DNA from: Escherichia phage ID62
Sequence record: NC_007824.1
Reading direction: 5' to 3' (one strand)
Length of the DNA: 6,051 nucleotides
The position numbers and the translations under genes are program-made. Positions 66 to 6,051 of this stretch are shown here, piece after piece; position 1 is the stretch's first letter; every line of letters starts with the position of its first letter. Below the pieces are notes generated by a model. The model was given only the letters and a program-made list of their open reading frames with translations, ran no database searches and had not been told where the DNA came from.

Positions 66-434
66 ATGAAACCTGCTCACCGCCTTACTCACCCTGTTCT
101 TGGTTCATGGTTGTTTAAGTGCCCCGTCTATGTTCGTTATGAGTCTGTTCACAATGGTCGCCTTATCAAGGTTCGCGCTGTTCGTGATTTGTCTCCTCGC
201 CAGCAACTGATTGCTAACCCTAAAAATTGTTTTGACGTTGTCATTGTTGAGATTGACTTCACTTATTGCTCTGTTACCTATTTTGATTATGAGGCTGAGG
301 AATATGCTGAGTGTGGCCCAGAGACTATGGATAGCATCATTGCTTATATTAACGCTCCTCACTCCCTTCGCTCTGAGGAGGATTTATCCGTTGATGTTGA
401 TGATATGGAATGGCTCTATGAAATTGCGGAGTAA
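66..434 (+). CDS. Hypothetical protein, 122 aa, basic N-terminal half and strongly acidic C-terminal tail (H-A intergenic ORF 1)
   Basis: ATG at 66 preceded by GGAG (54-57) at 8-nt spacing; open to TAA at 432-434; codon third positions strongly T-biased (gtt, cgt, gct, cct, ctt), as in the canonical genes here. The ORF track starts it at ATG 24, which has no SD. No similarity to any phiX174 protein that I recognise. Confidence 0.5.
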   Translation: MKPAHRLTHPVLGSWLFKCPVYVRYESVHNGRLIKVRAVRDLSPRQQLIANPKNCFDVVIVEIDFTYCSVTYFDYEAEEYAECGPETMDSIIAYINAPHSLRSEEDLSVDVDDMEWLYEIAE

Positions 435-527: not shown

Positions 528-700
528 AATATTTTAGTTTGGTTGATGAACATTATGCTTATTGCCTTGATACAAGGATTTTGCATATCACTCGCAGTCG
601 TGTTTCTGACCCTCGGTATGAGCGTCGCTTTCTTACTGATGAGGAGCATCTTGCACTTTTGGATTGGTTGAAAAATCGCCCAGCTTACATTAATTCTTGA
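524..700 (+). CDS. Hypothetical protein, 58 aa, GTG start (H-A intergenic ORF 3)
   Basis: GTG at 524-526 overlaps the ORF 2 stop (ccGTGA, 4-nt overlap typical of translational coupling); GGAGG at 514-518 with 5-nt spacing; TGA at 698-700; T-ending codons throughout. Translation MKYFSLVDEHYAYCLDTRILHITRSRVSDPRYERRFLTDEEHLALLDWLKNRPAYINS. Start codon choice is uncertain. Confidence 0.45.
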   Translation: MKYFSLVDEHYAYCLDTRILHITRSRVSDPRYERRFLTDEEHLALLDWLKNRPAYINS

Positions 701-726
701 CAGACCTTTAAAATACCCTCTATATT
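697..726 (+). promoter_or_regulatory. Candidate sigma70 promoter for gene A (pA-like)
   Basis: Consensus -35 TTGACA at 697-702, 18-nt spacer, -10 TATATT at 721-726; about 34 nt upstream of the gene A ATG; phiX174 has a promoter at the equivalent position. Confidence 0.5.
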
Positions 727-759
727 GCTCTCATAGTTTCACTATGAGGGCTTTTTCGC

Positions 760-2963: not shown

Positions 2964-3038
2964 ATGAAGAAAATTCGTCGTTCTCCTTCTCGTAAGAAAG
3001 GTGCTCGCCTCTGGTATGTAGGCGGTTCTCAGTTTTAA
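2964..3038 (+). CDS. J: Small basic DNA-binding/packaging protein J, 24 aa
   Basis: MKKIRRSPSRKKGARLWYVGGSQF; the C-terminus matches phiX174 J (KGARLWYVGGQQF); starts 1 nt after the D stop; shorter than the 38-aa phiX174 J. Confidence 0.9.
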   Translation: MKKIRRSPSRKKGARLWYVGGSQF

Positions 3039-3043
3039 TTGAT

Positions 3044-3057
3044 GGGGCTTCGGCCCC
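3044..3057 (+). terminator. GC-rich stem-loop with UUCG tetraloop in the J-F spacer (mRNA-stabilising or weak terminator hairpin)
   Basis: GGGGC-TTCG-GCCCC, a 5-bp G/C stem closing a cUUCGg tetraloop, followed by AAGGA and the F start; no T-run follows. Confidence 0.5.
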
Positions 3058-3072
3058 TATAAGGATTTATAA

Positions 3073-4356
3073 ATGTCTAATGTACAGACTTCCGCTGAAC
3101 GTATTCCCCATGACCTGTCTCATCTGGTTTTTGAAGCAGGTAAAATTGGTCGCTTAAAAGTTGTTTCTTGGACTCCTGTTGTTGCAGGTGATTCTTTTGA
3201 GCTTGATATGGTTGGCGCTATTCGCCTTTCTCCGCTTCGTCGCGGTCTTGCTGTTGACTCTCGCGTTGACCTGTTCACGTTCTATGTCCCTCACCGTCAT
3301 ATTTATGGTGAAGAGTGGATTCAGTTTATGAAAGATGGCGTTAATGCTAAACCTCTTGCACCTGTGACTTGTTCGCGTGGTTGGGATAGTGCTCAGTATT
3401 TAGGTACAATCCCTTCCAGTACCCTTAAGGTGCCTAAATTTCTTCATCAAGGTTATTTGAATATTTATAATAACTACTTCAAAGCTCCGTGGATGGATGA
3501 CCTGACTTACGCTAACCCGTCCAATATGGAAGGTGAAGACGTTCGTTTTGGTGTTCGTGCTTGTAACCTGAAAACTATTTGGACTGCCCCTTTGCCTCCG
3601 GGTACTGAAACTTCTCATTCTATGAAGACTGAGGCTAACTCTATCGATATTATGGGTTTACAAGCCGCTTATGCTCAATTGCATACTGAGCAGGAGCGTG
3701 ATTACTTCATGACTCGTTATCGTGATATTGTTAATGAATTTGGTGGTAGTACTTCTTATGATGCGGATAATCGTCCTTTGCTTGTTATGCATTCTGAGTT
3801 TTGGGCTTCAGGCTATGACGTCGACGGCACCGACCAAAGTTCTCTCGGTCAGTTCTCCGGACGTGTACAGCAGACCTTTAAGCATTCAGTACCGCGATTC
3901 TTCTGTCCTGAACACGGCACTATGTTCACGCTTGCACTGGTCCGCTTCCCGCCAACTCACGAAATGGAGATGCATTACTTAGTTGGTAAAGAGGATTTAA
4001 CTTATACTGATTTGGCTTGTGATCCAGCTCTGATGGCTAACCTTCCTCCTCGTGAGGTTAATATGAAGCAGTTCTTCCACTCTGGCGATGCTAATGCCAA
4101 GTTTAAGATTGCTGAAGGTCAATGGTATCGTATGCAGCCTGACCGTGTTGCGTTGCCGTATAACTATCTTGATGGCTTCCCGTTCTATAGCGCGATTCCG
4201 TCTAGTGATATTAAGCAGCGTGTTTTGGTCAATACTGACAACTACGATGAGGTTTTCCAGTCTATGCAGCTTGCTCATTGGAATATGCAGACTAAGTTCA
4301 ACTGCACGATTTATCGTAATATGCCGACCACTCGCGATTCCATTATGACTTCTTGA
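3073..4356 (+). CDS. F: Major capsid protein F, 427 aa
   Basis: Length and position after J as in phiX174; AAGGA at 3061-3065 with 7-nt spacing; sequence resembles phiX174 F from memory. Confidence 0.97.
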   Translation: MSNVQTSAERIPHDLSHLVFEAGKIGRLKVVSWTPVVAGDSFELDMVGAIRLSPLRRGLAVDSRVDLFTFYVPHRHIYGEEWIQFMKDGVNAKPLAPVTCSRGWDSAQYLGTIPSSTLKVPKFLHQGYLNIYNNYFKAPWMDDLTYANPSNMEGEDVRFGVRACNLKTIWTAPLPPGTETSHSMKTEANSIDIMGLQAAYAQLHTEQERDYFMTRYRDIVNEFGGSTSYDADNRPLLVMHSEFWASGYDVDGTDQSSLGQFSGRVQQTFKHSVPRFFCPEHGTMFTLALVRFPPTHEMEMHYLVGKEDLTYTDLACDPALMANLPPREVNMKQFFHSGDANAKFKIAEGQWYRMQPDRVALPYNYLDGFPFYSAIPSSDIKQRVLVNTDNYDEVFQSMQLAHWNMQTKFNCTIYRNMPTTRDSIMTS

Positions 4357-4362
4357 TTATGT

Positions 4363-4376
4363 GGGGCTTCGGCCCC
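4363..4376 (+). terminator. Second copy of the GGGGC-TTCG-GCCCC stem-loop, in the F-G spacer
   Basis: Identical 14-nt hairpin to 3044-3057, again followed by AAGGATTT and a start codon. Confidence 0.5.
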
Positions 4377-4392
4377 CTTTAAGGATTTGATT

Positions 4393-4938
4393 ATGTTTCA
4401 AGTTTATGTATCTAAGCATGTTGCCCCGTTCACTTCTAAGAACCGTGCCTTTTCTATTTCCCCTGCCGCTAACCCGCAGGTTGTTAACTCTGGTGAGATT
4501 GTTGCAGGTCGCTCCACTTTCCGCGTTGCGTCTTCCATTGGCGCTGCTTCTAATGGTAGTGGTTTTGCGTTTGTTCAGATGATGGACCCCAATTCTCCTG
4601 ATTCTCAGCAGGTTTTCTCTGTTGCTGCTTCGCTGTCCTTTAGTGTTGACTCGAATTACATTCCTTGTGTTGTTCGTTTTGAGAGCACTGCTGCTCAGCC
4701 TACTGGTTTTAATATTGCAACCTCTGATTTCATTCCGGTTGAGGCTTCTGCTCTTTCTCCTCGTGCGCTTAGTGTTCGCGATTGTGTCACTGTTGATGTT
4801 AAGCCTCGTGCTGAAGGCAATAATGTCTTTGTTGGTGTGGTTTTCTTCTCTGCCTCCGCTAATGCTGGTAATGTTACTGGTGTTGTTTCGATGGCTCAGG
4901 TTGACCACGAAGTTACAGCTTTGCAGCCGCTTAAATAA
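4393..4938 (+). CDS. G: Major spike protein G, 181 aa
   Basis: MFQVYVSKH... aligns with the phiX174 G N-terminus (MFQKFISKH) and ends in ATVLQPLK-like TALQPLK; AAGGA at 4381-4385 with 7-nt spacing. The ORF track start at 4387 is TTG. Confidence 0.92.
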   Translation: MFQVYVSKHVAPFTSKNRAFSISPAANPQVVNSGEIVAGRSTFRVASSIGAASNGSGFAFVQMMDPNSPDSQQVFSVAASLSFSVDSNYIPCVVRFESTAAQPTGFNIATSDFIPVEASALSPRALSVRDCVTVDVKPRAEGNNVFVGVVFFSASANAGNVTGVVSMAQVDHEVTALQPLK

Positions 4939-5073
4939 AAGGCCGCCGCACTCCCGGTTAGATGCCTGCCCAGTGTAGGGCGGACCGAGCCTTACGGAGA
5001 TACCCGATAAACTAGGAACGCGGAAGGCGTAAGCCGCCTTCCCTCCTGCTAAGCCCAAAGGAGACTTTCAGCT
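4939..5073 (+). other. Structured G-H intergenic region; candidate primase-dependent complementary (-) strand origin and/or post-G terminator
   Basis: An 8-bp perfect stem GGAAGGCG (5022-5029) / CGCCTTCC (5035-5042) with 5-nt loop, plus a second hairpin CTGCCC (4966-4971) / GGGCGG (4978-4983); 135 nt non-coding, GC-rich relative to the rest of the genome. From memory, alpha3, St-1 and phiK place their negative-strand origin between G and H. Confidence 0.4.
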
Positions 5074-6051
5074 ATGATAGGTGCCGTTGTAGGTGGTATT
5101 GCTTCAGCCTTAGCCAGTGGAGCCGCTTCTAAGCTGTTTGGTGGCAAACCTGCCGCTCAAGCCGCTACTGAGTCCTCTGGCCTTTCCAATGGTCAAGGTG
5201 TTATTGGTATGGATAATGATGCCGGTATCCAGTCAGCTATTCAGGGTTCTAATGTTCCTAATGGTCAGATTCCCGCTCCCACTCAGACTGGAGGTGTTAT
5301 GGCTGATGCCAAGAATATGATTAAGAATGCCGGTAAGGATTTGCTTGATGGTGTCATGACTGCTGGTAGTGACCGAGTCAAGCAAGCGTTAGTTGATAAA
5401 TTGAGTGGTAATAATGCAAAGAAACAAGGACAAGCAACCCGTGATTACTTGGCTGCGGCCTTCCCTGAGCTCAATGCATGGGAACGTGCTGGAGCTGGTG
5501 CTTCCGGCGCCGGACTGGAATCTTCCGGTCAGGACCAACAGAAGGAGTTGATGCGTATGCAGCTGGATACTCAGAAGGATATTGCTAAGATGCAGATGCA
5601 GAATAATTTGCAGATTGCCGGTATTCAGTCCGCTACTTCTCGTCAGAACACAAAGGATTCTGTTTATGCTCAGAATGAGATGCTTCAGTACAATCAACGT
5701 GAGTCACAGGCACGCGTCGAGTCCATCCTCGCCAATACTGACCTTACGGCTAAACAAGCTACCCATGAAATTATGAGAATGGCTCTTACCCGTGCTCAGG
5801 AGACTGGTCAGCATTTGACTAATAGTCAGATTATGGCTTTGGAGAAGAAAGTTTATGCAGAAATCGGAAAAATTCATCAAGATACTCAAAACGCTCGCTA
5901 TGGTAGCTCTCAAGTTACTGCTACGGCGAAAGACGTTTCGAACATGATTACTGATGCCGCCTCAGGTTTTGGTGATTGGGCCTCTCAACAGTGGAATTCC
6001 TTCTTTAAGGATGGCAAGTCCAACGGTATTCCTCTTAACACTAGAAAATAA
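5074..6051 (+). CDS. H: Minor spike / DNA pilot protein H, 325 aa
   Basis: N-terminus MIGAVVGGIASALASGAASKLFGG and internal RDYLAAAFPELNAWERAGA, IAGIQSATSRQNTKD and VYAQNEML match phiX174 H from memory; AGGAG at 5059-5063. Confidence 0.95.
   Translation: MIGAVVGGIASALASGAASKLFGGKPAAQAATESSGLSNGQGVIGMDNDAGIQSAIQGSNVPNGQIPAPTQTGGVMADAKNMIKNAGKDLLDGVMTAGSDRVKQALVDKLSGNNAKKQGQATRDYLAAAFPELNAWERAGAGASGAGLESSGQDQQKELMRMQLDTQKDIAKMQMQNNLQIAGIQSATSRQNTKDSVYAQNEMLQYNQRESQARVESILANTDLTAKQATHEIMRMALTRAQETGQHLTNSQIMALEKKVYAEIGKIHQDTQNARYGSSQVTATAKDVSNMITDAASGFGDWASQQWNSFFKDGKSNGIPLNTRK

Follow-up and report, generated by a model that had tools for sequence, protein, structure and literature searches.

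Genome organization and relatives

The DNA analysed, hereafter the window, is a stretch of 6051 nt whose + strand corresponds to the packaged viral strand and has the same sense as mRNA. The window is 92% identical, over 100% of its length, to the Escherichia phages WA45 and WA13 (Alphatrevirus, Bullavirinae), and about 85% identical to alpha3, St-1 and phiK. Gene coordinates are superimposable on those of the annotated WA13 and alpha3 records, a correspondence by which the window is, on sequence grounds, the complete genome of an alpha3-type (Alphatrevirus, WA13-like) microvirus, linearised after the stop codon of gene H. Whole-genome similarity, the A-B-K-C-D-E-J-F-G-H gene order and the long H-A region all assign it to the WA13-like members of the genus. 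The genes mentioned most often below are located as follows.

760-2244: gene A
2964-3038: gene J
3073-4356, + strand: F, the major capsid gene, with stop codon TGA at 4354-4356, identified by synteny with the annotated F of WA13 and WA45
4393-4938, + strand: G, the major spike gene, with start codon ATG at 4393-4395, encoding a protein 92-93% identical to G of WA13 and NC28
5074-6051: gene H

Comparisons were carried out on 12 alphatreviruses and 7 other Bullavirinae. Querying viral contigs with the F protein yielded hardly any genome beyond the same GenBank set. The A protein of the window is 98% identical to that of alpha3 and 47% identical to that of G4. The F protein is 82% identical to its G4 counterpart versus only 67% to that of alpha3, and the G protein is about 36-39% identical to those of alpha3, phiK, G4 and phiX174 alike. 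Judged by these values, the WA13-like subgroup, the window genome included, is a mosaic, and the pattern is consistent with the horizontal exchange of capsid gene cassettes.

The 759-nt 'intergenic' region between H and A hosts a conserved 122-aa ORF (MKPAHRLTHP...WLYEIAE; window 66-434, + strand), which is intact in 10 of the 12 alphatrevirus records and which several RefSeq records, including those of WA13 and WA45, leave unannotated. The ORF is intact also in the resequenced alpha3 record DQ085810.2, and is frameshifted in the older record X60322 and in St-1; because of the intact DQ085810.2 copy, the X60322 frameshifts look like sequencing errors. The dN/dS ratio is about 0.1-0.2 in frame versus above 1.1 in the other two frames. 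The ORF has no match in Pfam or PHROG and, within the phage collection, is confined to alphatreviruses. Five extra conserved ORFs of unknown function have been described in alpha3- and WA13-like phages (PMC2935103). In the same region, the stretch 697-751 (+ strand) comprises a near-consensus sigma-70 promoter (TTGACA, 18 nt, TATATT; 11/12 matches) and, directly after it, a strong terminator hairpin (727-751, + strand; 11 bp, with TTTTT behind the stem). Gene A follows, with its ATG at 760. The organization is that of the overlapping pA/T_H signals of phiX174 (bioRxiv 10.1101/2020.03.05.979765).

The F-G spacer

Genes F and G are separated by a short spacer, in which a hairpin and a Shine-Dalgarno sequence follow each other.

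4357-4392, + strand: F-G intergenic spacer, 36 nt, TTATGTGGGGCTTCGGCCCCCTTTAAGGATTTGATT, a stop/hairpin/RBS cassette and paralogue of the J-F spacer
4363-4376, + strand: 14-nt hairpin GGGGC-TTCG-GCCCC, forming a c(UUCG)g tetraloop in mRNA, putative equivalent of T_F
4381-4385, + strand: Shine-Dalgarno sequence AAGGA of gene G, 7 nt before the ATG at 4393, conserved in all relatives

By synteny, the junction corresponds to the one between the annotated genes F and G in WA13, WA45 and alpha3, and the G start codon shares its frame with the ORF that ends at 4938. The initial annotation had described the spacer as only 36 nt long and as holding little beyond a 14-nt hairpin and the RBS. Both descriptions are correct, as the stop codon of F and the ATG of G can be read directly, and the two elements occupy the positions given above. 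An antisense ORF (4357-5058, - strand, 233 aa), which runs across gene G and stops precisely at the F-G spacer, was treated as spurious. In nine relatives the longest antisense ORF over G has a length between 135 and 226 aa, and in NC3, ID21 and NC29 none of the three longest minus-strand ORFs overlaps G. The 233-aa ORF is probably a by-product of codon composition.

The predicted folding energy of the F-G hairpin is -10.4 kcal/mol as RNA versus -5.8 kcal/mol as DNA. Folded in isolation, the spacer has unremarkable z-scores (-1.3 to -1.7), and the reality of the hairpin therefore rests on other evidence, namely its rarity in the genome and its conservation. The genome has only two perfect 5-bp hairpins made exclusively of G and C, where shuffled sequences give an expectation of 0.37, and the F-G hairpin is one of them. 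It is present in 12/12 alphatreviruses, with 100% of the stem cells paired and one compensatory change from G-C to C-G, and the TTCG loop closed by C-G is invariant at this junction in the entire set. The stem is GGGGC/GCCCC in the window versus GGGCC/GGCCC in alpha3, St-1 and phiK. A scan of the whole window against Rfam at E <= 1 gave no match, so that neither this hairpin nor the origin described below is covered by a curated RNA family.

The length of the spacer is likewise a constant feature, ranging from 33 to 37 nt in all 12 alphatreviruses; it is 110 nt in phiX174 and 136 nt in G4 and ID52. The G-H spacer measures 134-136 nt in the 12 alphatreviruses, 8 nt in phiX174 and 10 nt in G4 and ID52. 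The F-G spacer is best explained as a minimal expression cassette, made of the stop codon of F, the c(UUCG)g hairpin and the Shine-Dalgarno sequence of G, and devoid of replication elements.

Twin hairpins flank the capsid gene

A second copy of the hairpin is located upstream of F.

3039-3072, + strand: J-F spacer, 34 nt, collinear with the F-G spacer
3044-3057, + strand: twin hairpin GGGGCTTCGGCCCC, the same as at F-G, equivalent of T_J

The two hairpins are part of an exact 15-nt direct repeat, TGGGGCTTCGGCCCC, found at 3043-3057 (J-F) and 4362-4376 (F-G), which brackets the capsid gene. The two spacers share the same layout, in which the stop codon is followed by 5-7 nt, the hairpin, the sequence (T)TTAAGGA, 7-9 nt and the ATG, and the TTCG loop is closed by C-G also at J-F. 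The identical 14-mer is found in the J-F spacer of phiX174 (nt 970-983), where it is the T_J terminator hairpin; in phiX174 the first termination signal is directly followed by residues A986 and C987 (PMC3606162). As in the window, a T-tract that is short and poor separates the phiX174 14-mer from an RBS. T_J-type cassettes are found at both J-F and F-G in the window, but only at J-F in phiX174. The T_F signal of phiX174 is a different hairpin and overlaps ori(-), whereas the F-G hairpin of the window is a copy of T_J.

Rho-independent termination at the phiX174 signals T_J, T_F and T_G is leaky, and each of them blocks only 20-40% of transcription (bioRxiv 10.1101/2020.03.05.979765), and the disruption of T_J results in faster mRNA decay (PMC3335065). 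The extra stability of the CUUCGG loop is a property of RNA, partly due to a hydrogen bond of the 2'-OH (PMC4371310). The F-G site has the G/C-rich stem-loop of an intrinsic terminator, placed 6 nt after the F stop codon and identical to the T_J hairpin. Its tail, CTTTAAGG, falls short of a U-tract with at least 5 T in 8 positions, and the site was not reported by the terminator scan. Only three U residues follow the hairpin (CUUUAAGG), and the T_J tail of phiX174 is likewise poor (TTACTT). With so short a U-tract, termination at F-G is probably weak, and it may be very weak, with the stabilization of RNA as the main action. By analogy with phiX174, the most probable roles of the F-G hairpin are those of a weak intrinsic terminator and of a stabilizer of mRNA 3' ends.

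Comparison with the primosome assembly site of phiX174

The F-G spacer of phiX174 hosts ori(-) with a PriA-binding hairpin, an element that overlaps the terminator T_F and the 5' stem of which corresponds to nt 2308-2326 (bioRxiv 10.64898/2026.07.25.740675; PMC3606162; PMC5778457). The literature is thus in keeping with the initial annotation, in which this spacer was regarded as the phiX174 primosome assembly site (PAS), and the further statement that the window has no site of that type between F and G agrees with the results of BLAST, profile searches and junction alignment, and with the size of the hairpin. No match to the phiX174 F-G spacer was found by BLAST in the circularised window (best E = 1.7). 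An nhmmer profile of phiX174-type F-G spacers, built from four sequences (phiX174 and three ID2-like gequatroviruses carrying the same module), similarly gave no better than E = 18 against the circularised (doubled) window.

In the alignment of the two junctions that had been proposed as a check, the F and G coding flanks line up, and the central module is missing from both the window and alpha3. The two spacers thus occupy the same genomic junction and both end with the RBS of G, but that of phiX174 spans 110 nt and carries a long A/T-looped hairpin bound by PriA, whereas the 36 nt of the window have no homology to it. The module shared by phiX174 and ID2-like phages (AACG..GGTAAAAATTTTAATTTTTGCC..GGTTGAxCAAGCGAAGCGCG) has no sequence homologue in the window. 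The only structure in the 36-nt spacer is the 14-nt hairpin with its 5-bp stem; nothing resembles the long fork-like hairpin of phiX174, and a single 14-nt hairpin cannot replace a PriA hairpin whose 5' stem alone measures 19 nt. A phiX174-type site is not detectable by sequence either at F-G or elsewhere in the genome, a statement to be read in the light of the little sequence consensus that PAS elements have.

A G4-type origin between G and H

The long spacer between G and H has the features of a complementary-strand origin.

4939-5073, + strand: G-H spacer, 135 nt, G4-type primase-dependent complementary-strand origin cassette, identified by homology to the G4 F-G origin
4941-4947 / 4979-4986, + strand: arms of origin hairpin III, a long-range G/C stem with A4984 bulged
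5022-5042, + strand: origin hairpin I (stem 5022-5029 / 5035-5042), an 8-bp stem, GGAAGGCG/CGCCTTCC, with loop TAAGC
5046-5048, + strand: 5'-CTG-3', located 3 nt after hairpin I as in G4, aligned with the G4 CTG at 3996-3998, in invariant columns
5020-5047, - strand: predicted primer template, with 28-nt primer RNA 5'-AGGAGGGAAGGCGGCUUACGCCUUCCGC, by register with G4
5057-5063, + strand: RBS of H, AAAGGAG, within the origin cassette

The G4 F-G origin is 79% identical to window 4938-5062 over 126 nt (BLAST E = 7e-25; profile E = 5e-24). Likeness extends to nearly the whole spacer, downstream RBS included, and concerns the 8-bp hairpin I with its GCGNNAGC loop, hairpin III and the spacing of the CTG. 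The G-H spacer therefore shares homology, structure and register with G4-type origins. The two origins differ in location (F-G in G4, G-H in the window), in one stem pair of hairpin I, swapped from C-G to A-T, and in hairpin II, which is found only in G4. The 3' arm of this last element (CGGAGA/TCTCCG in G4) is absent in 12/12 alpha3-type sequences, and since hairpin II is not conserved the window origin is not structurally identical to that of G4. Hairpin II is also absent from the characterised origins of alpha3, St-1 and phiK, and is therefore not a defining element of the alpha3 subtype.

Hairpin I is 100% paired in 14 sequences, and one of its pairs is changed on both sides between two clades. 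In hairpin III 99% of the cells are paired and two pairs are changed on both sides, from C-G to U-A in four sequences and from G-C to A-U in one. Over the 14 sequences the two hairpins together are 99.5% paired, and both partners have changed in 3 pairs. Their covariation score was reached by 0/500 shuffles, and slid controls all fall to 34-57% paired. The spacer of the window, folded by itself, has a weak z-score (-1.3). A local helix (CTGCCC/GGGCGG) would also agree with the data, but it exhibits only one-sided changes, and hairpin III, with its two two-sided changes, was preferred. The sequence GCGTAAGC in hairpin I (5027-5034) fits the GCGNNAGC mini-hairpin motif, which has been described for hairpin I in three phages, namely G4 (GCGAAAGC), St-1 and alpha3 (both GCGTTAGC) (PMC13037366). 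The loop is TAAGC in the window versus TTAGC in alpha3, St-1 and phiK.

In the G4 record a 28-nt RNA primer is annotated at 3970-3997 and rep_origin at 3998, both in the F-G spacer. From the shared CTG register, the primer of the window is predicted to start opposite T5047. The G-H spacer is 92-95% identical to those of alpha3, St-1 and phiK, the negative-strand origins of which are dnaG (primase)-dependent according to Sims, Capon and Dressler (1979), as cited in PMC13037366. Because of this identity, we infer that initiation at the G-H origin would require primase only.

The initial annotation had supposed that negative-strand initiation is relocated in this genome, as expected for primase-dependent phages of the group. 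The homologue of the G4 primase-dependent origin found at G-H supports the latter expectation. As to relocation, initiation is indeed placed elsewhere, but with respect to phiX174 the mechanism is a different one at a different junction, and the same element has not moved; phiX174 uses the full primosome, whereas primase alone would suffice in the window. With respect to G4, in which the same cassette is found one junction upstream, the relocation is a true one.

Proposed model and alternative explanations

The overall interpretation, which we regard as very probable, is that the F-G spacer is an expression cassette with a T_J-type hairpin, and that complementary-strand synthesis starts in the G-H spacer by the action of DnaG on a G4-type origin. 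In mRNA, the F-G hairpin would stop a fraction of the RNA polymerases after F and would shield the resulting 3' end from exonucleases. Termination and stabilization at this site would contribute to a stepwise fall of transcripts across the capsid genes, as documented in phiX174. On the viral strand coated by SSB, the 135-nt G-H cassette would fold into hairpins I and III, and DnaG primase would recognise it directly, in a process dispensing with PriA, PriB, DnaT, DnaB and DnaC. Priming would begin opposite T5047, within the CTG that follows hairpin I at a distance of 3 nt.

As the viral strand and mRNA have the same sense, the F-G hairpin exists in single-stranded DNA as well (-5.8 kcal/mol), and could act there as a structure that keeps SSB off, as a signal for packaging or condensation, as a secondary site of priming or as a gpA/A* cleavage site outside the origin. 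This is quite unlikely, because the special stability of the TTCG loop closed by C-G, which is kept at F-G in 12/12 sequences and also at J-F, is RNA-dependent (PMC4371310); moreover, the 5-bp DNA stem is weak beside the 8-bp hairpin I of the origin, the origin-like arrangement of a CTG after the hairpin is missing, and the placing of stop codon, hairpin and RBS at two successive junctions suits an expression signal. A role in translational coupling was weighed as well. In the minimum free energy fold of 4345-4400 the tetraloop hairpin is surrounded by a 7-bp outer helix, in which the end of F (UUCUUGA, 4350-4356) pairs with the Shine-Dalgarno region of G (UUAAGGA, 4379-4385), so that the RBS of G might be masked until ribosomes terminate at the F stop codon. 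Both arms are conserved, but, being coding sequence in one case and RBS in the other, they are under constraint in any event, and they feature no covariation; the z-score is -1.26. Masking of the RBS is very unlikely, and was rejected as the main function of the site, since the consensus fold of the 12 sequences retains only the 5-bp hairpin and no equivalent helix is formed at the J-F paralogue.

The twin cassettes may be something other than independent terminators. Their identity may be kept by concerted evolution, and the repeats could serve as microhomology joints for the exchange of F among Bullavirinae. The J-F and F-G hairpins are identical to each other in the window and within 9/12 relatives, and NC28 has the GGGCC variant at both junctions although its F gene is WA13-like. 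The mosaic relationships of F, set against the alpha3-like A protein, fit an exchange of the F cassette through hairpin joints. We hold this reading to be unlikely, though less so than the others discussed here; it rests on perhaps one evolutionary event, and is accordingly weak. If true, the same cassette logic would explain the move of the origin module between F-G and G-H, and the presence of both origin types at F-G in Gequatrovirus. As to replication, a PriA-dependent site unrelated to that of phiX174 could serve as main or alternative complementary-strand origin elsewhere in the genome, for instance in the 759-nt H-A region. Structure, more than sequence, defines PAS elements, so that homology searches may miss one; the H-A region is long, and for the H-A spacer of phiX174 an interaction with host replication factors has been proposed (PMC3606162). 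Against this stand the intact G4-type origin of the window, which is under clear structural constraint, the dnaG (primase) dependence of the type-phage origins stated in the title of Sims et al. 1979 (PMC13037366), and the fact that a protein-coding ORF under purifying selection takes up roughly one half of H-A (nt 66-434 of 759). A site of this sort is highly improbable, and DnaG-dependent initiation at G-H remains the preferred explanation.

Relation to the alpha3 plan and modularity of the origin

Gene order in the window is as in alpha3, St-1 and phiK (records including alpha3 X60322 and phiK X60323), which similarly have a short F-G spacer with a c(TTCG)g hairpin and AAGGA, and a G-H spacer of 134-136 nt with conserved hairpin I, hairpin III and CTG. 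The association of a short F-G spacer with a dnaG-dependent G-H origin has been known for these phages since 1979 (Sims, Capon and Dressler, as cited in PMC13037366). The genome thus follows the classic alpha3/St-1/phiK plan, and the significance of the present data beyond annotation is small. The origin region is unannotated in the GenBank records of the closest relatives, and a precise annotation of the complementary-strand origin is now possible, with hairpin I at 5022-5042 and the predicted primer start opposite T5047.

The F-G junction is modular in the genus Gequatrovirus. G4 and ID52 have there a primase origin, and ID2-like phages a phiX-type module, in spacers of 92-99 nt. In the ID2-like gequatroviruses (L024-L026; F-G spacers at about 2782-2880) a phiX174-type PAS module, GGGTACAAATTTTAATTTGTGCC...CAAGCGAAGCGCG, replaces the G4 primase origin. 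As both types are found at the same junction, the type of negative-strand origin has therefore been swapped within the genus. Expression signals, consisting of a T_J-type hairpin and an RBS, are reused from junction to junction, and the negative-strand origin is in the subfamily an interchangeable intergenic cassette, of either PriA or primase type, located at either F-G or G-H.
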